In this document: one piece after another, positions 9,439 through 59,707 of the stretch
Layout: each line of letters opens with the position of its first letter
Position numbering within the stretch: position 1 is the first letter of the stretch
Sequence record: NC_135732.1
Length of the DNA stretch: 64,000 bases
Source: a phage
Direction: 5' to 3' (one strand)
Made by a program: the position numbers and the translations under genes
The notes under the pieces: model-generated
Told to the model about the DNA's origin: nothing
Seen by the model: the letters and a program-made list of their open reading frames with translations, nothing else
Database searches by the model: none

Positions 9439-9995
9439 GAAAGAAAGCTGTCAAAGCCCCCGTTCATAGCGGGTGGCTAAAAGATTCTAAGGACATAGCC
9501 AACTTTCGAAAAGAATTGTCAGAGGAGCAGGATGGTCTTGATCCGATCTTGTGCGAGCCACTTCGTAAGCCTTGTTTAGATCATGATCATCTGACTGGTC
9601 GTTGCAGGGGTGTTTTGTCTCAGTGCACTAATACCTTTGAGGGGTATGTGCTTAAATACTGGATGAAATACTGTAACGAGTATACAGATTGCAGTTTATC
9701 AGAGGCGTTGCGCCGGATGGCTGACTATCTGGAGAAAGACTACAGCGACTTCCCGCTCCACAAAAACTACAGAGATGATATGACAAAGTTCTTGAGGAGA
9801 TGCTCTAAAGCTACGATTATTGCACGAGCAGAATCAGATCTCAATCTTGTCATTAATCCAGAGTGCACCAAGCATGAGGCTATTGAGTCCTACATGCAGG
9901 AGTTTATAAAGAAAACTGAGGAGAGAGATTTCTATGGGGATGAAAAAGGTATTCAATCCTTGCGACTCAGTCCTGATCAGGATGAAATACCGTAA
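9390..9995 (+). CDS. recombination endonuclease VII-like
   Basis: CLDHDHLTGRCRGVLSQCTN matches the endo VII zinc/His motif; TTG start, overlaps upstream gene. Confidence 0.65.
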   Translation: MDRQGASGGVIAKRKIRKKAVKAPVHSGWLKDSKDIANFRKELSEEQDGLDPILCEPLRKPCLDHDHLTGRCRGVLSQCTNTFEGYVLKYWMKYCNEYTDCSLSEALRRMADYLEKDYSDFPLHKNYRDDMTKFLRRCSKATIIARAESDLNLVINPECTKHEAIESYMQEFIKKTEERDFYGDEKGIQSLRLSPDQDEIP

Positions 9996-10155
9996 CTGGA
10001 AAGGTGCTGTTGCAGATCGCTGCGTTACTGAGCCTAATTTATGGTTTGGCTCTACAGAGTATCATAAAGAAGAGCAGTGGTTGATGCATGCCTTTGATGT
10101 AGACAAGGGCGAATATCGTGACTTCGCTTTAAAAGACATTCTTCAGTTTTACTAA
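9934..10155 (+). CDS. hypothetical protein
   Basis: GAGGAGAGAG RBS; overlaps 3' end of upstream gene by about 60 nt. Confidence 0.4.
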   Translation: MGMKKVFNPCDSVLIRMKYRNWKGAVADRCVTEPNLWFGSTEYHKEEQWLMHAFDVDKGEYRDFALKDILQFY

Positions 10156-47013: not shown

Positions 47014-47472
47014 TCAACACTTTTTGTACTCCACCACGATAATATCCATATCAAAAGTGGCAAGGTTAATAACGTCCTCTACGTGCTCCCACTTCAAACC
47101 GCCTATGCCGCACCCGATCTTAGGGATGTAGAATGGTAAAGTCGATCCACCGAATACCTCGTTGACTAGCTCAAAGCCTTTCAGGATTGAGAAATATTCA
47201 GCATTAGGTCCTGGGTAGAACTGAGTATACAGATTGATTCCGTAGACAATACCTCTCGGAGATAAGTGCTCCCATCGGGAGAATGCACCCAGTTTACTTA
47301 GGCAACCGTGTCTAGTCTCTTTGTCGGCTGACAATGCTTGAGGGAACTCACGGGCAATATCTTTCGCTATGCCTGCACCCATTGTGTGAAAGCAGTTACA
47401 ACCGTGGATCATGTGTCCTGCCCCTTTCTTGAAAAGGGAGATTAGATCTCCTTCTACAGTATCAATAATCAC
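47014..47472 (-). CDS. macro-domain protein (ADP-ribose binding / processing)
   Basis: VEGDLISL...MIHGCNCFHTMGAGIAKDI...PKIGCGIGGL resemble macro-domain motifs; start uncertain (GTG 47472 overlapping upstream stop; alternatives ATG 47553, GTG 47571). Confidence 0.55.
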   Translation of the reverse strand: MIIDTVEGDLISLFKKGAGHMIHGCNCFHTMGAGIAKDIAREFPQALSADKETRHGCLSKLGAFSRWEHLSPRGIVYGINLYTQFYPGPNAEYFSILKGFELVNEVFGGSTLPFYIPKIGCGIGGLKWEHVEDVINLATFDMDIIVVEYKKC

Positions 47473-47887
47473 GGTATGCCAGCTCCTCTTCCGCAATTTC
47501 AAAAAACTCAGTCCAGCACTGTGGCATATTGGAGTTACCGAAGTGGCTTTCATAGTAAAGGTTCTCACCACTCGGGAGATAGAAATCTGTTACCTCATAG
47601 AATCCACAATCGTCGCACTCACCTTCTTCAAACTTGGCCTCGACCTTAATACCGAGGAAGGTGAAAAGTTTATGGATATCTTCAGTTTCGAACTCCCAGT
47701 GAATGTTGTTTTCCGCATCGGTGTAGAACTGGATCAGCAGACCATTGTCCAGTTTACCAAAATACTCTGTGAAGTAACTTCCTTCCCAGAAATCTTTATG
47801 ACAAATAATATCCATGCGTTTGCCCATAATAATGGTGTGAGCGTTTTGGGCATCATCACGAATCAGTTTTGGCATTTCATAGATCAT
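47462..47887 (-). CDS. hypothetical protein
   Basis: GGAG RBS. Confidence 0.5.
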   Translation of the reverse strand: MIYEMPKLIRDDAQNAHTIIMGKRMDIICHKDFWEGSYFTEYFGKLDNGLLIQFYTDAENNIHWEFETEDIHKLFTFLGIKVEAKFEEGECDDCGFYEVTDFYLPSGENLYYESHFGNSNMPQCWTEFFEIAEEELAYRDY

Positions 47888-48685: not shown

Positions 48686-48714
48686 AAAAATGCCCCACCC
48701 TTTCGGGCAGGGCT
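48686..48714 (-). terminator. rho-independent terminator (repeated element)
   Basis: Minus-strand CCCTGCCC-GAAA-GGGTGGGG hairpin then U-run; same 20-nt core recurs at 59681-59700. Confidence 0.6.
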
Positions 48715-48728
48715 ATGTTAACTAGATG

Positions 48729-49955
48729 TTAGAATGGGATGTCATCATCAAAGGCGTACTGTGCTGGATTCTGATCCATCGGGTCATCTTCCTCGTCATT
48801 TACAGGAGGAGCGTCTACAGTATTTTGCTGTGAAGCAGCTTCCTGTTTGGCAGCTTGAGGTTCTTGATGGTCAGTGGACCCAGCACCGTTCTTGATCCAA
48901 TCGTACAACGGCTCAGCCAGATTAGTCAAGACATCTTTTGCTTCTGCAGTAATTGCCGCTGCAAAATCATCAACTTTCGTTTTCTTGTCAATACGGCGAC
49001 AAGCGTTCAACACCGCATTACCGACACTGGCACCTACTTCATCTTCAGTTCGGTTGGTGGCTTGAGCATACTCTTTCTTAAGCTCAATAGTGACTACGTG
49101 CAGTGTTTTAGCCACACCTAGTGGGTCGTCTACCTTAAACCCGCGATCCAGGATGATTTGCAACGCATTGATGCTATGTCCCGTCTCCACACCAATAGGG
49201 TCGTAAGAGGATTTACGCTTGCCACCAGAGCCTTGAGTGCCGTTCTCTGCCTTAGGTGGATAGGCTTTGAAACCACTGATAATGTTTCCGGTGTCTTTGT
49301 CAACAATGGCTGCAACACGACCACCTACCACCAGGTCTTTAAGCTGCTCATCAGTAACAACCATGGCACCTTCGCCAATCTTGTGGTCATTAACAGTAAC
49401 CACGTTGCCAACAATCTGAGTCACATCGCCATAGATGCGTAAAACGTCCTGATTGGCATTCTGCTGAGGTTTCTGCTTCTGGCCTTGTGATTGTGCACCT
49501 TGTTGCTGTTTTTGCTGCTGAGTCGCTGCTGGAGCCTCTCCTGCACCCAGCTTGACCATCTTAGCCAGTGAGCCTTTGTAATAGGTCTTACCGTTATGCT
49601 CGTTTGCCTTCAAAGGGATATTTACGATCCATCCCGGCGTTACGGTTTCCCACTTGTCATCAATCTTAACAGAGACAGAGTCTTGATGACCAGGTTTAAG
49701 CAGCTTATCACCCATACTGATCCAAACTTCTTCACCACCTTGAAGCAGGTTATCAGAGGAATCCAGTTCAGAAATCAGTAAAGAGATGGTGTGGCTGGAT
49801 TCAATTTTCTTACCTTGCCACACAGTGGTTTTAATACCTGTTGTAGGATCAGCACCTTTGATAGGTTTGATGCTGACACGTTTAATCATGCCGTGAGCCA
49901 GTAAAACAGTTTCACGCGGATTCATCGGGTTAGCGAATTGTTGAATAACGCTCAT
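48729..49955 (-). CDS. SSB-like protein with C-terminal acidic DDDIPF tail
   Basis: C-terminus ...AFDDDIPF as in bacterial SSB; Gln-rich linker; AGGAGA RBS; N-terminal domain not assigned. Confidence 0.5.
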   Translation of the reverse strand: MSVIQQFANPMNPRETVLLAHGMIKRVSIKPIKGADPTTGIKTTVWQGKKIESSHTISLLISELDSSDNLLQGGEEVWISMGDKLLKPGHQDSVSVKIDDKWETVTPGWIVNIPLKANEHNGKTYYKGSLAKMVKLGAGEAPAATQQQKQQQGAQSQGQKQKPQQNANQDVLRIYGDVTQIVGNVVTVNDHKIGEGAMVVTDEQLKDLVVGGRVAAIVDKDTGNIISGFKAYPPKAENGTQGSGGKRKSSYDPIGVETGHSINALQIILDRGFKVDDPLGVAKTLHVVTIELKKEYAQATNRTEDEVGASVGNAVLNACRRIDKKTKVDDFAAAITAEAKDVLTNLAEPLYDWIKNGAGSTDHQEPQAAKQEAASQQNTVDAPPVNDEEDDPMDQNPAQYAFDDDIPF

Positions 49956-50320
49956 TATTTGTCTCCTTGTTCTTCGTTAGTGTTTGCCGTGTGTGCAAAC
50001 CCTGCTTGAATTAATTTGTCCTGAACTTGAGCCAACAGGCCCATTGCAAAACTTGTGGTCCCAGAGAGGGCCATCAACATATCTCGTTGTTGAGCTACCC
50101 AACCTAAGGCATAGTCCAAACGACGATATTTTTCTTCTTCACGCAGAGCCTGAAATAATTGTTCAGCCTCCGGTTGTTGTGTGAGCTCCTGAAGTCTTCC
50201 CATGAAAGAAGAAAGCACTAGCAAAAGAGACACTTGATCTTTACTTAACCCTAAGAAAAATTCTTGAGGTTGTTCTTGCTCGTTCATCGCAACCGACGCT
50301 TGATCGTTCATTTGTTCCAT
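49955..50320 (-). CDS. hypothetical protein
   Basis: GGAGA RBS. Confidence 0.5.
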   Translation of the reverse strand: MEQMNDQASVAMNEQEQPQEFFLGLSKDQVSLLLVLSSFMGRLQELTQQPEAEQLFQALREEEKYRRLDYALGWVAQQRDMLMALSGTTSFAMGLLAQVQDKLIQAGFAHTANTNEEQGDK

Positions 50321-50403
50321 TATGGAATCTCCGATTTTATTTGAACAACATAGAAGGAGACACTATTTTAGCATCCCCTTCTGTAAATTACAATAGATAT
50401 TTG

Positions 50404-50649
50404 TTAGCCAATCACTTCAAAAGTTCCCCAATTCCCGTCCAGCAGGCAGGTGATCGGATCCCCATCGTCGTCAAAGATTTCAAAGTTTTCAGCATCCAGG
50501 ATGTGGCCCTCGAACACAATACTTTCGTCGCCACCACCAGAAATAACAGCGTATTCCTTACCTTGAGTCAAGTTTTGACACCCTTTGCCACCAAAACCTA
50601 CTTCAACACAACGTACTTTCTGTCCTGCGCGAGCAACTACTCCAGTCAT
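50404..50649 (-). CDS. hypothetical protein
   Basis: AGGAGA RBS. Confidence 0.5.
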   Translation of the reverse strand: MTGVVARAGQKVRCVEVGFGGKGCQNLTQGKEYAVISGGGDESIVFEGHILDAENFEIFDDDGDPITCLLDGNWGTFEVIG

Positions 50650-50666
50650 CTTAAGGTCTCCTGATA

Positions 50667-50969
50667 TTAATCGTCAAGTTCAAAATAGATTTTAACAGCT
50701 TCATCAAAGATTGGAATCCCGATGTTGTTGATAAGCTGCCAAACTACCATATCTTTACCTGGGTCTGGGAGAATGTCAACCTTTCTCCATGCGCTGTATA
50801 TCCAGTTCGGACCACCTTCTGCACTAACTGGCAGATTTTCACCAGCCTCCTGCAGATACTTATACAGCAAAAGATATTCTGGATACTCTAGAACACTGTC
50901 CTCTGTAGTATATAGCAGTTCACGGTATACTTTTAAGAACCCTGCGGGGGTGATGTTTTCAGTCTTCAT
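50667..50969 (-). CDS. hypothetical protein
   Basis: AGGAGA RBS then ATG 50969. Confidence 0.5.
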   Translation of the reverse strand: MKTENITPAGFLKVYRELLYTTEDSVLEYPEYLLLYKYLQEAGENLPVSAEGGPNWIYSAWRKVDILPDPGKDMVVWQLINNIGIPIFDEAVKIYFELDD

Positions 50970-51348
50970 TTGCTGCTTCTCCTGCATTCATCAGATCTGC
51001 CATAGCGTCACCCACGAAGAGAACAACCACATCGTTGATCGCGTCAGCATCATCTTTGTTGACGTTGCTGAATTTAGGACACACAGCAATGATCATATAG
51101 ACACCGTTACCAACCTGGACTGTCCGTGTGGTGCACATCATGGCGGTATTTGTGCCTTCTTTGAAGGCGAAGCCTTGAAGACGCTCCTCTAAAGTGTTAC
51201 CGGTAGATTTCAGAAGCGCCAGCTCGTCCAAGGCATAGATGATATCTCCGGAAGTTAGTGTTGCCTTGCCATCAGACACCATAATCACTCCATCAGCACC
51301 GTCAAGCTTAGAGGCTTCAAAGATATCAATATCCCAAATATTTTTCAT
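50959..51348 (-). CDS. hypothetical protein
   Basis: GAGGAA RBS. Confidence 0.5.
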   Translation of the reverse strand: MKNIWDIDIFEASKLDGADGVIMVSDGKATLTSGDIIYALDELALLKSTGNTLEERLQGFAFKEGTNTAMMCTTRTVQVGNGVYMIIAVCPKFSNVNKDDADAINDVVVLFVGDAMADLMNAGEAANED

Positions 51349-51620
51349 TACGCTTCCTCGTCGTCTAAGTAATCATCAAGAGAGGTGAAGATTTCACCGA
51401 AGTATTCTAAGATTGCTAGCTCACGTGTGGTGCAGCAAACATAATCGCCTTGGTCGTCCTTAATAGTGGCCTCTTTACCCAGAACATGCACTTCAAATTC
51501 ATCGTTCAGCAGGACGGCCCCTGTGTAAACTTTGTCAGCTGTGCAGTCCCGAAAAGCAGAGTCCTTTTCCAGATAGTCTGGCTTAACCTTGGCTTTAATT
51601 CGTTGATATTGTTTGGTCAT
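51348..51620 (-). CDS. hypothetical protein (paralog of 51684 ORF)
   Basis: GGGGA RBS then ATG 51620; AFRDCT and KDDQGDYVCCT shared with neighbour. Confidence 0.5.
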   Translation of the reverse strand: MTKQYQRIKAKVKPDYLEKDSAFRDCTADKVYTGAVLLNDEFEVHVLGKEATIKDDQGDYVCCTTRELAILEYFGEIFTSLDDYLDDEEA

Positions 51621-51683
51621 TGCTGTGGTCCCCTTTCGTTTTGATAGGGCCATTATATTAGGCCCTATCACTGTTGTCAAGTA

Positions 51684-51938
51684 TTAATGTTCAGGTTTTA
51701 CAAAAACTACTTCATTAACAGTGCACCAGACAGAGTCTCCTTCGTCATCTTTAAAGGTAAGGCACTGTGCTGAGTTTTCCAGCTCATCAATCTCTTCTTG
51801 TGATAAAGGAGCCCCTTCTTCCAGAAGGGCTTTTACCAAAGGGTTCTCACAAAACTCTGCTTCATAAACTACACCGATTGTGCAATCTTTAAAAGCTCGG
51901 TCATTTTCAACGCATTCTGGCTTCAGAGTAATTTTCAT
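51684..51938 (-). CDS. hypothetical protein (paralog of 51348 ORF)
   Basis: AGGAGA RBS; AFKDCT and KDDEGDSVWCT. Confidence 0.5.
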   Translation of the reverse strand: MKITLKPECVENDRAFKDCTIGVVYEAEFCENPLVKALLEEGAPLSQEEIDELENSAQCLTFKDDEGDSVWCTVNEVVFVKPEH

Positions 51939-52014
51939 CTTGGCAGTCTCCTTAATTATTTAAAAATCAACTCTTTGTTTGTGTGAAACATCTTATACCT
52001 AATCTTACTTCTTG

Positions 52015-52386
52015 TCAACGACTATTTTCAATCATCCACCAAGGATCAAGGTAGGTTTGTTGACTTTTTGCCCACTGGCAAACATCTTCGTACATCTGAA
52101 CTTCGTTTTCAGTCAGTTCGCGAATAGGCTCATCTATACCCTCATTTTTGTGGTAATCCCAGCTGGCATCGATTTCCCATAGCCACGGTTTGTTATTTCC
52201 ACGTTTACGTACACAGAAGTCACCGGGACGGCCTGCCAATGCATTTAAGAACTCGTTCTCCGCTCGCTCCTGAAGAATACTAAGGAGCAAAACGTTGGAG
52301 CATGACCGTAAAATATGCTTCAGCTCACAATCATCAATCTCAACTTCAATACGTTGTTTGACTGTGTGGGTACCTTTTACTAACAT
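52015..52386 (-). CDS. hypothetical protein
   Basis: AGGAGG RBS then ATG 52386. Confidence 0.5.
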   Translation of the reverse strand: MLVKGTHTVKQRIEVEIDDCELKHILRSCSNVLLLSILQERAENEFLNALAGRPGDFCVRKRGNNKPWLWEIDASWDYHKNEGIDEPIRELTENEVQMYEDVCQWAKSQQTYLDPWWMIENSR

Positions 52387-52396
52387 CCTACCTCCT

Positions 52397-52591
52397 CTAA
52401 ACGAACTCTGCAAGGGTTGTGTTGTTCACTGCACCGCAGTAAATGGAGTATCCCAGCCCATTAGAGTGCAGAAACCACGGCGTGCCGAAATTATCTTTCA
52501 CGTAGACATCGCCGTTGCTTGTAAAGGGCCAATATTCTTCACCAAGGGTGAAATACCTACTCATACCCTCAGCCAGATACTTTACTTTCAT
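52397..52591 (-). CDS. hypothetical small protein (three-member paralog set)
   Basis: GAAGAGGA RBS; WFLHSNGLGYSIY resembles neighbours. Confidence 0.5.
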   Translation of the reverse strand: MKVKYLAEGMSRYFTLGEEYWPFTSNGDVYVKDNFGTPWFLHSNGLGYSIYCGAVNNTTLAEFV

Positions 52592-52815
52592 AGGTCCTCT
52601 TCAACAGCTACAAACTTGGCAAGCAGGGTGGTTCCGTAGATATGATACTCACCGTTTGCCAGATGGGAGATAAACCAGGCAATCCCTTCCTCGTCTTTAA
52701 TCATCTTGTTTGCACGATTTTTATCGTAATAAACCTCGTAGGTCTTTCCTTCTTTAAAGAAGGACAGGTCTGTCATCTTTTCTTCTACAAAAGTAGCTTT
52801 AACCAAAGTTGTCAT
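52588..52815 (-). CDS. hypothetical small protein (paralog set)
   Basis: AAGGAGA RBS; WFISHLANGEYHIY. Confidence 0.5.
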   Translation of the reverse strand: MTTLVKATFVEEKMTDLSFFKEGKTYEVYYDKNRANKMIKDEEGIAWFISHLANGEYHIYGTTLLAKFVAVEEDL

Positions 52816-53096
52816 TGATCGGTCTCCTTCTTGTTAAGTCTGAATACTGCAATAATAGCATTCCCAAGGTGCAGTGTCAAATCATTTCCAAGATACCACA
52901 GCATCCCACGGTCATCTTTAATGAAAGGGTGACAATCTGGTGCCTTCCAGACATTGTACACTTTCCCAACCTGAAAGAAATCAGGCCCTGTCGGGATTTT
53001 GGTGCCTGGCCACACTTGAGATACCTGAACACACTCCACCTGCATAATAACAGGGATAGTCATGGATGTAAATGTTTTTGTTGGCTCTACTACCAT
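52812..53096 (-). CDS. hypothetical protein (paralog set)
   Basis: AAAGAGGAGA RBS then ATG 53096; track start was GTG 53186. Confidence 0.5.
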   Translation of the reverse strand: MVVEPTKTFTSMTIPVIMQVECVQVSQVWPGTKIPTGPDFFQVGKVYNVWKAPDCHPFIKDDRGMLWYLGNDLTLHLGNAIIAVFRLNKKETDQ

Positions 53097-53145
53097 AAAA
53101 GTCTCCTCTTTGCTCAACAACACTTCCATGTGTTGATAGTTTACA

Positions 53146-53499
53146 TTAGTGACAATCACCCCAATTACGACCACACAAGTATTCACCTGTGATCTGGAAC
53201 GGGACTCCCATCATTTTAGAAGCTTGCCAGAAGCAATGCACCACCATTTCACCCACCGGGCTCCAGATAAGTTCAAGCTTCCCGTCATCGTTCAGGATAG
53301 GATCGTACACCGTGTTTCCGTCTCTGTCAACCACTTCGTTTCCGTTCTCATCCTTGCGTGCCTTTTTGTACTTATGACCGTCAAACACATGAAGTTTGGC
53401 TTCCTGCTCTGCCTTAAATGCTTCCAATTCTTCAATTGTGTCGAAGGTGTACACAGTCTTATACTTAGGCGTGTCAGGGACCTGAAGTTGGTACTCATC
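53146..53499 (-). CDS. DNA polymerase family A, exon 2
   Basis: Begins DEYQ (completes motif C YHDE with exon 1); ends ...VPFQITGEYLCGRNWGDCH like Pol I / T7 gp5 C-termini; no in-frame ATG. Confidence 0.7.
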   Translation of the reverse strand, partial: DEYQLQVPDTPKYKTVYTFDTIEELEAFKAEQEAKLHVFDGHKYKKARKDENGNEVVDRDGNTVYDPILNDDGKLELIWSPVGEMVVHCFWQASKMMGVPFQITGEYLCGRNWGDCH

Positions 53500-54341
53500 C
53501 AATAGTTCAGGTAGGTCGTTAAGCTACCCCGCACCATTACGTGCACAGCCATACGGTTTCCTGTATGGATCGGACTATCTCACTACCTTGTTACCAAGGC
53601 ACCTCTCATTTCGACCGCACTTGCTGGCCTACTCTACTCGCTTCTTCACACCAAACTATGTTGGAGCTATGCTTTCGATAGTCTCTGAACGTTACTACCA
53701 GGTGTAGTTTTTAGAGATATGTTTCCACTGTCTTCTTTGCTTTATGGCTCTGACCGTCTCATAAGGATACCCAAGATCCCTAATCTCGCATTGTCGTAGA
53801 CCACTCTGCAACAGTTCGCAAATCTCCGTTACCTCATCCTCGGTCAGCACAGCGTTGGCATTATACTCACCGACTGGCCTTACTCTGAGTTCATTATCGT
53901 AGGCGTGTTTGATATTTCCACCAGGGGTAGTCCATTCCAGGTTCCAGTGTGCATTGTTGTACTTATTTCCATCCTTATGGTTCACCCATGTGAGCTTTTC
54001 AGGATCAGGGTTCGGTACAAAGCATTCAGCAACCAAGTGGTGGACACCTTTTGTGCACTGCTTCCCCTCGATGAGCATGGTTACGCAAAGGTAACCTCTA
54101 CCATTATCAAAACAAAACATTGTTGTATGATCACGTTTCGATAAAGGTATTGTTCCATCATCAAACACGGTATACCCGTGATAATCAGCTGATCTAGCCA
54201 TTTTAACTACACCCCTTTAGTCTTCGCTGCGGATTAGCATATTAAGCTTTTACCATGTTCAGGTGTAAAAGTCAACTTAGCCTTCCCGTCAATTAAAGAG
54301 GTTTTCGACGTGCATCACTGCACGAAGCCACAATGTTATTT
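53500..54341 (-). mobile_element. group I self-splicing intron in DNA polymerase gene
   Basis: Minus-strand P AATTGACGGGAAGG (54294-54281), Q TAATCCGCAGCG (54236-54225), R GTTCAGAGACTATC (53690-53677), S GAGATAGTCC (53581-53572), P9 hairpin with GAAA loop; guide sequence CATTGTGG (54335-54328) pairs exon 1 end CCAT and exon 2 start GATG. Confidence 0.75.
53695..54201 (-). CDS. HNH homing endonuclease (intron-encoded)
   Basis: HHLVAECF...VNHKDGNKYNNAHWNLEW HNH motif; AAGGGGTG RBS; between Q and R elements. Confidence 0.75.
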   Translation of the reverse strand: MARSADYHGYTVFDDGTIPLSKRDHTTMFCFDNGRGYLCVTMLIEGKQCTKGVHHLVAECFVPNPDPEKLTWVNHKDGNKYNNAHWNLEWTTPGGNIKHAYDNELRVRPVGEYNANAVLTEDEVTEICELLQSGLRQCEIRDLGYPYETVRAIKQRRQWKHISKNYTW

Positions 54342-56765
54342 ATGGTAATAAATAATACGACGAACACCTTCATCGTACCACCCGCGCTTCACCATTTGGT
54401 GGTGCATGAGTATCCCAACTAAGTCACACAACGATGCACCACCATTCTGTTGGTATGCATTAAGTAAAGAGTGTTTAGATCGGGTCCAGATAGCATGACC
54501 ATCAAAAGAGTAGATAAACTTCTTACCCGTTGCTTCCCAGAATTTCTCCAGATCTTCTTTACGCCCCTTAAGACCGGGGTTGGCATCCCAAAGTGCATCG
54601 ATTACCCTTTGTCCCAACTCTGGGGAGATATCCAGCATGTCTGCAACTTTGTCTTTTTGTGCCCCATACATAACCCCATACGTGATAGGTTTACCGTCGT
54701 TACGAGACACCTCTCTGCCTGCTACTTTTGTATATGCCTCAGCATTGTTTTGGTGTGCGTCCCCGTTACTTACAACATCATAATACAAGCCGTTGTCGAA
54801 CTCAAAGGCACCCCAAGCCCCGATAAGCTGCTCTAAGTTGGACCCGTCAATACCGATCTCAAAGTATCCCGGAGGAACACCCCACAGACTACGCATCTCT
54901 TTACCCATAACAACTTTAGGAGATGGTTTAGGCATGTTTGCACAAATACTGTGTTTCTGTCTGGAAGTGTTTGTTAATCCAGAGCTTTTAGCAGGAAGCT
55001 TATGGTCAATCTTCAAACGTGGGTGATTAAGAAGACCAGTGTCAACCTTATCCTCCTTGATTGGATCAAGTACCGATCTGCGGTTTCGCAATGATAACCA
55101 CAAGACGATATCTTTAGCCATCTCTCCGTTCAATTTTTCAAGATTCGGGCACAGGTGTCCAAACGTATCTTTCAGTTGCGGAGAAGTAATAAGTGCCCTA
55201 GCTTTTCTACGTATTTTCCCGAATACTTCCTTTTTAATCCTTTCGGAGTTAGGAAAGCTTCGGAACTTGTGCACGGTTGTCTGGAACTTAGCATCAGTTT
55301 TGTTCCAGAAGTTGATAATTAGATCACAATACTCTGACTCTAAAAGCTCGTCCATATATGCATATACTCGTGCATCAACATCTGCATCAGGTAGAGCTTT
55401 CTTCTTGCTGTCTTTAGTTACATCCTTAGTTCTCCACATTGTCGGAAGCCAACCAGCACTGATCAGATACCGCTTAATGTCGTCCTGATTGCTGATTTTC
55501 ATAGGTATCTTGCAGTCCGGCATTCGCTTCTGCTGTAGATCACTTATTGCCTGATCCATTAGCTCTTTAGGTAAAGGTTGTGGTGTGGAGGTGCCCTTAA
55601 TATAGCCTCTCAAGAAATCAGCCATCTTATCTGGGTCTTTGCAGCCCATCTCTTCACACCATTTTATCCCCATCTTACTGACATCTCCTGTGGAGGTAAA
55701 TGCTCGCTTAGGCGGGGCTTTGAACTCTAAAGCACTCATGTCTACAGGATAGCCAAGCTTATCTTTTAACCATTTCCAACCATTATTGGAAATTGTCCCA
55801 TCTTGGTTAAATGGCTTTTCAGGGAACTTGGGCCGCTGAGACATTGACAGCTCTTTTAAAGGTAGTTGTGGTTCAACACGATCAGCGATTTCTTTCATCC
55901 ACGCATCGCAACGGTCACGTAAAGCAATAGCTCCATCTATGTCAAAATACACACCCTGACGGGCCTGCAGCTCCATCAGGAAGTGCTGCAGCATGCCTCG
56001 GCGCAATGCGTTCTTCCAGGTGATTTTCTTGAACCCTTTCGGCTTCTCTTTGGCTGGATCGTACATAAAGTTCTGCATGTCAGATTTGCCGTAGAATACA
56101 CCTTTTGATTCCGCTACCAGCTCTTTCCAGAGCAGCTCCTGGATGATAACGTCCTCGAATACACGATCCACATACTTCCACAACGGAAGATCGCGCCAGT
56201 CATCAATTTGAACTTTCTGGTTACCAAGGGCGTAGCCCCATGCCATAAGGCCGTGAGGACCAACAGGCTGCATTTTCTTAGTAACCGGGTTGAATACAGA
56301 GTCCGGACAACCTTTTGGTAAAGGGCGATCAGGCCACAAGATTCTGCTCATCGCCAACGTATCAAACAGGTTAACCTGGTGGTCGTTGATAGTCCCCATG
56401 CATTTAGGATCACGGAACATATCAAAATGAATACCGGATAATCTTTCCATCAGCATAAAGTCATAACTGTAGCAGTTATGGCAGTTCAAAGCTGTTGGTG
56501 ACCAGTCGGAATTGCCTGTAAGCCAACCTTCCAACTCCGAAAAATCTGCTATGCGAACTTCAAAATCTTTATGAAGAGTTTTCTTTGCCAGAATAAAGTT
56601 CTTAGCCTTCTCTATATCCTCTTCGGAGTAGTGTGTGCGGTCATTTAGAGGAAGGAACAGCATAAAACGGTTCTTATTCAGCTCTTTAAACAGGCCGCAG
56701 TGATAATAAAGATCTGGATCTTCCAGCAAACCGGATGACTCAAAGTCGAACGACCACATGCTCAT
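54342..56765 (-). CDS. DNA polymerase family A, exon 1
   Basis: Motif A FEIGIDGSNLEQLI, motif B RNDGKPITYGVMYG; AAGGAGA RBS; frame reaches stop 2 codons into the intron. Confidence 0.8.
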
Positions 56766-56823
56766 ATACAGTTCTCCTTAAAGGGGAGGCGGTTGTACTA
56801 CCCCTCCCACTCTTTGTTAAACA

Positions 56824-58902
56824 TTAAAAAGGTGTTTCATCATCCTCAAAACCAGGGACCGGATCAGAGGATGGATCATCGTATTGGAGGTCTTCCTGCG
56901 TGTCAATAGGCTTGACAGTGGGTGTTACAACCTTATCAGCCACAACCTTGCCCATAGGTGTTTCTACAACTGCATGCTCCTGATCCTCAAACATAGCCTG
57001 AGGTCTCCAAACAACCTCCCCACCTTCTCCGTCTGTAAACATCTGCATTTCTTTGTCCCAGTACCAATTACTGGCATCATGGAACTTACCTGTATGCGGA
57101 TCCATAACTAAAGTGTCAGCAATACCTAAAGTTTTTGCTGGACGGTTTTTAAGACCTACCAGACGGACACGTCCACGAGAACGATCCACCATTTCTTCGG
57201 CCTCGACACCTATGACTACCCAACTCAACTGTTCAAGCCCAGCCGATCCTCGCAAATTCTCTTTTCGCACAGGATACCAGAAAGGTAATGGGTTACCATC
57301 CTTGTCCTTAGGGGGCACAATCTCTGTACGTTTGAGGTGAGCGATCACCAAGATAAACACGTTAAACTGCTTACAAAACGCAGCCAGTTGGGTCATAGCC
57401 ATGTCCAGTTCTTTTCGCTCATCCTTAACATTAAGCCCTGAAATTACCATGGACAGGTGATCCAGCACAATATAACGACAATGGTACAGGCAAACCATTT
57501 GCTTAAGCTTGGTAATCAACTCGTCCACTGGAATAGACCCGAAATGTTTGAACACTTTGATTTTTCCAGCTTTTGCCCATGATTGGTGAATCTCTGCGTG
57601 TTCTTGATCAGTTAAAAACTGGCTAGGATCTTCAACAAACTCTTTAACATCAAACCCTAACTGGTTTGCATACAAGGAGTTAATTGCTTCCTCTGGGTCC
57701 TCCTCAAGATGGATCATACATAGACGATCATCCTCTTCATAGTCATCAGCCTTCGGGCATGTTGGGTCCATTAGGTATCTTGCAATACAATGTTCCAGTT
57801 TTTTAGCTACGGTTGTTTTACCGCCACCTGATGGGCCTGTAAGCATTACAAGTGTCCCCTTGTGCAAGCCTTTTAACATTTTTTGCAGTTTTGGGAACTC
57901 TGCACTGATATCTACCCCGTTGGAAGTCTTTTTCCGCAAAGACTCGATAGAGAAGTCTTCTAAGTCCGACACAGCATCAGGCACATATTTAACAGGATGC
58001 CGGAACATGTTGACAATATCTTCCAGCTTTTTAGCCTTCAGCATGTCACGGATATCTTTTACCCCGTCAGGGTCATTTACTTCACCAGGGTATTCTACGT
58101 GGTAAACGTTATCAGCCATCAAAAATGCTGCGATATTGTGCGTGGCCTCAACACCTTTAATGACGTGTTTTTGCTTCTCTACCTCGTTGGCTGCATCGTT
58201 ATCCATTGCCAGCACAACTGTTCCATAGCTACGGATAAACTTCTCATTGTTTGCAAAAGTATCTACTGCGTTTGCACATCCACAGTTAATTCCAACAAAA
58301 GGTAGGCAGGGTTTTCCTGCCAGATCACCACCGTTGATAACTGCATCGATCCCGTCCTGGACCTCTTTAGCCCACTGTTTCACCTTTGCCGGGGCTTTAG
58401 CATTGGTGAGAATCCCTTTTACTTGTATCTGATATGCAGCCTGCCATGCTGCAATAACATCGCCTTCCCCCTCACAAACGTTAATCTGCTTACGGTTGTT
58501 AGAAGATGCACACAGCTTTTGCCCAAACATTTGGGAGTTAGCCTTTACGATCCCAACCGTCGTAAAGTGCCCACGTTGCTCTTTGGGGATCGTCCAGTCA
58601 CGCTTTTTGAAACCGGACAGATTCCCGTAGCGGTCGTAATATGGGAAATATGTTGCAGTAACTGTCACACCGTCTTCTTGGGACAATGCTGATCGCACAC
58701 CAAAATATTGTGCAGCCATCAGACCGATATTTTGTTGTGGGACAGGGACAATTTTAGTATTTTCTAAAACAGTCTCTACAGTTTCAACTTCTTTTTCATC
58801 ACGATAGTCTCGTTTCACACTTCCCCCACTTTTATACTTAGTTGCTTTCGGGTTTGGCTCACCGAAACGGTTGTATGCAGATGCCATAAATTTACTTCCC
58901 AT
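56824..58902 (-). CDS. primase-helicase (T7 gp4-like)
   Basis: TOPRIM-like CEGEGD and AMDNDAANE, Walker A LTGPSGGGKTT, Walker B IVLDHL; acidic tail ending DDETPF. Confidence 0.8.
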   Translation of the reverse strand: MGSKFMASAYNRFGEPNPKATKYKSGGSVKRDYRDEKEVETVETVLENTKIVPVPQQNIGLMAAQYFGVRSALSQEDGVTVTATYFPYYDRYGNLSGFKKRDWTIPKEQRGHFTTVGIVKANSQMFGQKLCASSNNRKQINVCEGEGDVIAAWQAAYQIQVKGILTNAKAPAKVKQWAKEVQDGIDAVINGGDLAGKPCLPFVGINCGCANAVDTFANNEKFIRSYGTVVLAMDNDAANEVEKQKHVIKGVEATHNIAAFLMADNVYHVEYPGEVNDPDGVKDIRDMLKAKKLEDIVNMFRHPVKYVPDAVSDLEDFSIESLRKKTSNGVDISAEFPKLQKMLKGLHKGTLVMLTGPSGGGKTTVAKKLEHCIARYLMDPTCPKADDYEEDDRLCMIHLEEDPEEAINSLYANQLGFDVKEFVEDPSQFLTDQEHAEIHQSWAKAGKIKVFKHFGSIPVDELITKLKQMVCLYHCRYIVLDHLSMVISGLNVKDERKELDMAMTQLAAFCKQFNVFILVIAHLKRTEIVPPKDKDGNPLPFWYPVRKENLRGSAGLEQLSWVVIGVEAEEMVDRSRGRVRLVGLKNRPAKTLGIADTLVMDPHTGKFHDASNWYWDKEMQMFTDGEGGEVVWRPQAMFEDQEHAVVETPMGKVVADKVVTPTVKPIDTQEDLQYDDPSSDPVPGFEDDETPF

Positions 58903-59673: not shown

Positions 59674-59702
59674 CAAAAAGCCCCACCCTTTCGGGCAGGG
59701 CC
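59674..59702 (-). terminator. rho-independent terminator (second copy of repeated element)
   Basis: Same CCCTGCCC-GAAA-GGGTGGGG hairpin then U-run as at 48693. Confidence 0.6.
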
Positions 59703-59707
59703 TAGTG

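Follow-up and report, generated by a model that had tools for sequence, protein, structure and literature searches.

Which protein coats single-stranded DNA (ssDNA) at the replication fork of the large rV5-like phages, and what might be bound by the acidic tails ending in Pro-Phe (PF) that two of their replication proteins carry? These questions are raised by the region at 48729-58902 of a 64,000-nucleotide (nt) stretch of NC_135732.1, read on a single strand and referred to here as the window. This region covers an entire replication module, and hence more than one feature. The window matched 128 phage records, almost exclusively those of rV5-like myophages (genus Vequintavirus), and it shows 98.4% identity to Escherichia phage ime. 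Our analysis suggests, with moderate confidence, that a protein of 408 amino acids (aa) encoded at the end of this module is the phage's own replicative SSB (ssDNA-binding protein), belonging to the widespread phage family phrog_4477. PHROGs annotates this family as "unknown function", and the deposited records examined name the gene "hypothetical protein".

The 408-aa open reading frame (ORF) ends in NPAQYAFDDDIPF, that is, FDDDIPF, and the 692-aa ORF of the primase-helicase in the same module ends in PVPGFEDDETPF, that is, EDDETPF. An earlier note, made from the sequence alone, had described a T7-like replisome in which both proteins carry acidic tails with a terminal Phe. Both tails were present as described: a six-frame list of the window's ORFs with a length of 60 aa or more comprises 246 entries, of which 16 finish in F and only these two in PF. 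The PF tails are real, well beyond chance. At the 3′ ends of the two genes, 13 of the last 24 coding nucleotides are shared.

Conservation in homologues bore this description out. Homologues of the 408-aa protein numbered 56 in a word-indexed search and 253 clusters at 50% identity in an exhaustive profile search; 155 of the 203 collected SSB-like homologues end in PF, most of them as D-D-D-[ILV]-P-F, and in an alignment of 25 sequences reaching down to 30% identity P407 and F408 never vary. Several family members end in EPPMDFDDDIPF, the final 12 residues of E. coli SSB, so that the tip is identical to that of E. coli SSB over 7 residues in the 408-aa protein and over 12 in these relatives. 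When the family profile was compared with PDB sequences, E. coli SSB was matched through the tail only (C-terminus PMDFDDDIPF). In the primase-helicase family, a PF end is found in 112 of 120 homologues, the range extending to Vibrio phage proteins of about 42% identity, and the last residue is aromatic in 116 of the 120. The homologues without a PF end are mostly fragments or alleles with a homing-endonuclease extension. The two tails differ at position -3, which is I, L or V in 124 of 131 distinct SSB-like tails versus T, E, S or C in 40 of 43 helicase tails, and an aromatic residue is frequent at position -7 of the SSB-like tails, as in DFDDDIPF. By these alignments the helicase tail is conserved, yet forms a sub-motif distinct from that of the SSB-like tail.

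The SSB-like gene matched phrog_4477 over residues 1-408 (E 4.5e-173). An AlphaFold2 model built from the 25-sequence alignment shows three confident domains with disorder between them, with disordered parts recognised by the predicted local distance difference test (pLDDT) score, as follows.

48729..49955, (-) strand: SSB-like gene, 408 aa, orthologue of Bas52_0087 and member of phrog_4477 (ORF list and profile match).
49542..49955, (-) strand: N-terminal OB-fold domain, residues 1-138, the predicted ssDNA-binding core (AlphaFold2 beta domain).
49446..49541, (-) strand: Q-rich disordered linker, residues 139-170 (pLDDT <50 at residues 140-169).
49260..49445, (-) strand: small second beta-barrel, residues 171-232, b1-b2-b3-helix-b4-b5 (AlphaFold2 secondary structure).
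48891..49199, (-) strand: predicted four-helix bundle, residues 253-355, family-specific (AlphaFold2 model).
48732..48872, (-) strand: disordered acidic tail, residues 362-408 (pLDDT <50), its last 8 residues AFDDDIPF at 48732-48755.

The N-terminal domain had been judged by eye in the earlier note not to be a recognisable OB fold; the AlphaFold2 prediction overturned this, giving a confident OB fold whose nearest structures are SSB and PriB. Searches of BFVD added only weak structural matches (E 8e-3 to 5e-2), in which the partners were DUF2815 and "helix destabilizing" proteins. The second beta-barrel is missing from most family members, which are 260-310 aa long (for example P0052-P0056). 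The four-helix bundle, modelled alone, reached a pLDDT of 92.6, and a structure search with it returned no informative structural neighbour. The terminal AFDDDIPF is, by its sequence, a tip of the E. coli SSB C-terminal (SSB-Ct) type.

The 408-aa protein is syntenic with Bas52_0087 (QXV84166.1) of Escherichia phage RudolfGeigy/Bas52 and identical to it at 405 of 408 positions. Bas52_0087 is the trigger of DRT10 (UG17), a reverse-transcriptase defence (bioRxiv 10.64898/2026.04.29.721553, April 2026). According to this preprint, Bas52 mutants escaping DRT10 carry D252V or Y351C in Bas52_0087, and Phold and AlphaFold2 predicted an SSB-like protein with two OB folds, the barrel at residues 171-232 being labelled the second, and a disordered C-terminus (10.64898/2026.04.29.721553). 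The same work likens FDDDIPF to the C-terminal tip of E. coli SSB, a ligand of ExoI/SbcB among others; it further reports that SbcB dosage modulates DRT10 defence, proposes competition with SbcB, finds Bas52_0087 non-toxic when expressed alone, and derives its oligomerisation from a model (10.64898/2026.04.29.721553). D252, Y351 and the FDDDIPF tip are common to both proteins, and in the AlphaFold2 model D252 lies one residue before helix 1 of the bundle and Y351 within the last helix. The core of the present finding has already been described in the preprint, by prediction; new here are the helicase tail, the family-wide distribution, the four-helix bundle as a separate fold, the endonuclease-borne extensions and the predicted group I intron in the polymerase gene.

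Besides the SSB-like protein, this module encodes the primase-helicase and a DNA polymerase whose gene appears to be interrupted.

56824..58902, (-) strand: gp4-like primase-helicase, 692 aa (DnaB_C and AAA_25 domains; phrog_239), with the tail EDDETPF at 56827-56847.
54342..56765, (-) strand: family A DNA polymerase exon 1, an 809-aa ORF ending RRIIYYH (domain and PHROG matches, homologue alignment).
53500..54341, (-) strand: predicted group I intron, 842 nt (Rfam, and junctions from uninterrupted homologues).
53695-54201, (-) strand: HNH homing-endonuclease ORF inside the intron (HNH_3 domain).
53146..53499, (-) strand: DNA polymerase exon 2, a 118-aa ORF starting DEYQLQV, motif C (phrog_8888 positions 185-295).

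The T7-like character of the replisome claimed in the earlier note was upheld, since the polymerase belongs to family A and the primase-helicase is gp4-like, both established here by homology. By its alignment the 692-aa protein is genuinely homologous to gp4 (BLASTP E 5e-22; 25% identity across 522 aa, gp4 residues 111-540), and the aligned part takes in the SF4 helicase as well as the TOPRIM region. Its DnaB_C domain was found at E 1.8e-13, and its best PDB matches were all gp4 (6n7i, 5ikn, 1q57). The EGE and DxD motifs are present in the gp4 alignment as VCEGEGD and LAMDNDA; Pfam Toprim was not detected in the 692-aa protein, and Toprim_2 was recorded for its homologues on contigs L005 and L006. 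No N-terminal Cys4 zinc-binding domain was found, residues 1-87 (58642-58902) being unaligned with gp4 and free of cysteine. In gp4 this domain is needed for template-directed priming. Many primase-helicase homologues (P0062-P0064, P0103-P0151; 974-1025 aa) exceed the 692-aa form by about 300 aa, and the polymerase ORF of phage Mangalyan (L002 7606-11004) has 1132 aa versus 809 aa for exon 1 here; these lengths suggest intein-like or other insertions in some relatives.

The polymerase gene appears to be interrupted at motif C by a group I intron, with splicing predicted. RF00028 matched at 53550-54351 with 33.2 bits (E 2.7e-5), under the gathering score of 50. Joining 54342 to 53499 places IIYYH directly before DEYQLQV (motif C), where uninterrupted homologues read YIHDEYQF; exon 1 ends in U, and the spliced product would be 925 aa long. 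Bas52 carries an otherwise identical intron without the HNH ORF, and its polymerase is annotated as a join; in many database records the polymerase appears as two genes. The idea of a split polymerase made of two subunits was rejected in favour of the group I intron on the basis of the Rfam match, the homologue junctions and the Bas52 join. In T7, the gp2.5 tail anchors on the front basic patch of the polymerase gp5 (K587, K589, R590, R591, K594, R599), and the gp4-tail peptide DTDF has been seen on gp5 (PDB 6P7E). When the spliced polymerase was aligned with T7 gp5, a KK conserved in the polymerase lineage was found as the counterpart of R590/R591, and K587 and K589 fell in a 12-residue T7-specific insertion.

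Three further features of the module bear on how its genes are grouped.

48692..48713, (-) strand: terminator-like hairpin GCCCTGCCCGAAAGGGTGGGGC with a T-run, directly 3′ of the stop codon of the SSB-like gene.
59678..59703, (-) strand: second copy of the terminator-like hairpin GCCCTGCCCGAAAGGGTGGGGC with a T-run, upstream of the methylase and primase-helicase genes.
49955..50320, (-) strand: 121-aa gene, phrog_7310 (function unassigned), whose stop overlaps the ATG of the SSB-like gene as TAATG.

The two hairpin copies bracket a replication unit that runs from methylase to primase-helicase, polymerase, about 12 small genes and finally the SSB-like gene. The TAATG overlap suggests that the 121-aa gene and the SSB-like gene may be translationally coupled; the 121-aa gene has no Pfam or NCBIfam family match, and its membership of the replication system is uncertain. 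Just downstream of the unit, a 185-aa ORF (47014-47571, (-) strand) gave a weak Macro-domain match (E 2e-5) confined to residues 55-86.

Three distant metagenomic contigs repeat the order primase-helicase, polymerase, a few small genes and SSB-like gene, and their SSB-like proteins share only about 30-35% identity with the 408-aa protein. Exonuclease-like genes occur near the SSB-like gene in distant contigs. On contig L005, the gene immediately upstream of the SSB-like gene (9837-10001) matches Pfam Phage_T7_Gp5_9, the T7 RecBCD inhibitor family, and the polymerase-like protein of that contig is not of family A, so that its row in the alignment with T7 gp5 carries no meaning.

A search for a second SSB, by reading the annotation and by BLAST, found none in about 125 of the 137 kb of the manually annotated Bas52 genome (Vequintavirus), and the rV5 genome paper lists no SSB. 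In tblastn searches with E. coli SSB and T7 gp2.5, the sole match was the tail of the SSB-like gene. Because no other SSB was found in about 125 kb of this 137-kb genome, the role of replicative SSB is the most likely one for the 408-aa protein. The label "single-stranded DNA-binding protein" already stands on a few family records (NC_047776.2, PQ571307.1, PP919962.1 and phage Mt1B1_P17, L011 570-1502), and the NCBIfam SSB model matches only the last ~40 residues, the tail, of one member so labelled. The tail, and not the OB domain, is probably the basis of these annotations.

Both tips also proved to be insertion sites of mobile elements. An extension of about 15 residues (APIGLQY…) follows PF in 14 SSB-like and two helicase homologues, where a homing-endonuclease cassette has been inserted exactly after the Phe codon in place of the stop codon. 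The added residues come from the leader of the cassette itself (ribosome-binding site and CAATATG start), read in the frame of the host gene. Cassettes lie in the SSB-like gene of rV5, Mangalyan (L002 1953-2010) and about 30 other Vequintavirus records, in that of the Phapecoctavirus Mt1B1_P17 (L011 1440-1600), and in the primase-helicase gene of the Seunavirus Salmonella phage KE23 (L010 1440-1560). They have a common N-terminal Zn-finger module and differing nuclease domains, and in relatives they are located between the Phe codon and a hairpin of the 48692-48713 type. In phage WalterGehring/Bas51 (L012 230-340), the native DDSIPF-stop is kept and the endonuclease begins 8 nt downstream. Judging from these alleles, tail-masking and tail-preserving insertions both circulate in Vequintavirus; in the window the SSB-like gene has an empty site (48729-48731) and no cassette. 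We considered whether the extension belongs to a group I intron whose splicing would restore IPF-stop and rejected this, the insert being almost wholly endonuclease ORF; an Rfam scan of the cassette insert returned nothing even at E values up to 1.

A free Phe carboxylate is needed for partner binding in both E. coli SSB and T7 gp2.5. If the same need exists here, the selfish insertions would switch host-factor recruitment and possibly sensing by defences such as DRT10. Extending this, the tip-coding DNA (D-D-x-P-F-stop) could be a portable homing site, common to two unrelated replisome genes, for one Zn-finger/HNH-EndoVII endonuclease family, the insertions acting as on/off switches of host-factor recruitment and perhaps of DRT10 sensing, with the phage proteins forming a new SSB class. 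This extended proposal is doubtful as it stands; if it is true, the family would be a class defined by an OB fold, a four-helix bundle and a host-type tip. Alternatively, the extension may be a tolerated cost of a selfish element. The natural tail-masked alleles, such as those of rV5, EmilHeitz and DrSchubert beside the unextended ones of Bas52 and WalterGehring, offer ready tests of tip function.

Taken together, the replicative-SSB reading leads to the following putative mechanism. The N-terminal OB fold, together with the second barrel in the long form of the protein, would cover the lagging-strand template as the gp4-like helicase of the same bracketed unit exposes it. The four-helix bundle would probably serve self-association or partner contact, and the acidic disordered tail would present a tip matching that of the host SSB. 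This tip would engage the hydrophobic and basic pockets with which host proteins such as ExoI/SbcB normally recognise E. coli SSB-Ct, and probably the phage polymerase too; the related but distinct acidic xPF tail of the helicase would dock on the phage polymerase, by analogy with T7 gp4 and gp5. In this mechanism the fold and domain layout are predicted, and we infer that the OB domain binds ssDNA, that the protein oligomerises and that either tail contacts any partner.

Several results weigh against this reading. Searches of Pfam, NCBIfam and PDB sequences gave no match to the 408-aa protein, its family could not be linked by sequence profile to any SSB family (none of 112 members has a Pfam match), and HHalign against E. 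coli SSB and T7 gp2.5 gave probabilities below 1% (0.2% for E. coli SSB) with shallow templates, the search for homologues of the E. coli SSB OB domain having returned only sequences of >92% identity. Neither tblastn nor HHalign found any likeness of the 408-aa protein to gp2.5. The search for another SSB covered about 125 of the 137 kb of the Bas52 genome. Of the six basic residues forming the front patch of T7 gp5, the polymerase here matches only two. The SSB-like protein retains DDDIPF in the three distant contigs, where the helicase ends in NYG, KDF or GSY; because these three phages keep the SSB-like tip without the helicase PF tail, the two tails are no obligate pair. In this distribution the SSB tip stands out as older and under more constraint, and the PF tail of the helicase as confined to the rV5/PVP-SE1/phi92/Vibrio-phage lineage. 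Finally, a free C-terminal Phe is not strictly essential, because phages with the extension, including rV5, are viable; this speaks against an absolute requirement of the T7 kind.

The reading that survives best beside a replicative SSB is an SSB-tip decoy, in which the main job of the 408-aa protein is to display a host-type C-terminal tip that titrates or redirects ExoI/SbcB, RecQ, PriA and RecJ, thereby protecting phage DNA ends or subverting host repair, with the OB domains used for localisation only. The earlier note had left the choice between a partner-recruiting SSB and a tail mimic open. Identity of the tip to the host SSB-Ct over 7-12 residues fits a decoy, as do the genetic tie of the orthologue to SbcB dosage with the proposed SbcB competition and the lack of toxicity of the protein expressed alone (10.64898/2026.04.29.721553). 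Such a decoy would have no need of two barrels and a helical bundle, however, and the confident predicted OB fold, closest to SSBs, the place of the gene inside replication modules conserved across distant phages, and the absence of an alternative SSB in about 125 of the 137 kb of Bas52 all argue against it. We therefore consider decoy activity as the main role unlikely and rank it below the recruiting SSB, which is favoured by synteny, the OB fold and the lack of another SSB; the two roles are mutually compatible.

Less probable still is a recombination mediator or single-strand annealing protein, whose tip would load it onto SSB-coated DNA or recruit partners while the host SSB works at the fork. 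The annotation of T7 gp2.5 covers annealing as well as ssDNA binding, distant contigs have exonuclease-like genes in the vicinity, and phage annealases and mediators are known to use or read SSB tails. Against this, no similarity to an annealase family was found in Pfam, PHROGs or PDB, and proteins that read SSB tails normally lack the tip themselves. Equally improbable is the idea that the likeness of the tails is coincidental or purely electrostatic, with generic acidic tails regulating their own proteins' DNA binding in cis and having no common receptor: the systematic difference at position -3, the loss of the helicase tail in distant phages retaining the SSB-like tip, the viability of extension alleles and the known fold-back of acidic SSB tails onto their own OB domain are consistent with it, but the terminal P-F stays unchanged across the wide divergence of both families, which is far more than charge demands, only two ORFs in the window end in PF, and the two tails of T7 do have a common receptor.

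The replicative-SSB reading would extend the two-tail logic of T7, in which SSB and helicase are tethered by acidic Phe-ending tails, to large rV5-like myophages and their relatives. Use of the host's own SSB tip sequence by phages suggests direct access to the host SSB-interaction network, and the DRT10 trigger is placed in a replisome context, within a family of 253 clusters none of which has a Pfam model. For annotation, the analysis argues that phrog_4477 should be labelled a putative SSB and that the two polymerase exons should be joined.

Compared with known systems, the two-tail replisome of the window is, by sequence, a new instance of the T7 kind with bacterial-type tips. It resembles T7 in having a gp4-homologous primase-helicase, a family A polymerase and a predicted OB-fold SSB, with acidic Phe-ending tails on SSB and helicase. 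The parallel drawn in the earlier note between these tails and those of T7 holds for their acidity and terminal Phe on both proteins and fails for the tips themselves, as T7 tails end in DF (gp2.5 DEDGDF; gp4 SNDTDF), whereas the Vequintavirus tails end in PF, the bacterial SSB-Ct signature xPF. Furthermore, T7 gp4 has a Zn-binding domain that is missing from the helicase here, gp2.5 has no sequence relation to the 408-aa protein, and gp5 is about 220 residues shorter than the polymerase here, which carries the predicted group I intron and matches the gp5 front patch only in part, through the KK. With E. coli SSB, the 408-aa protein would have in common the OB fold, as modelled, a long disordered linker and an acidic tip of the DFDDDIPF type. 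Its OB core has no detectable sequence homology with E. coli SSB (PF00436), its linker is Q-rich and acidic where that of E. coli SSB is Gly/Pro/Gln-rich, and, unlike E. coli SSB, it is predicted to contain an extra beta-barrel and a four-helix bundle.

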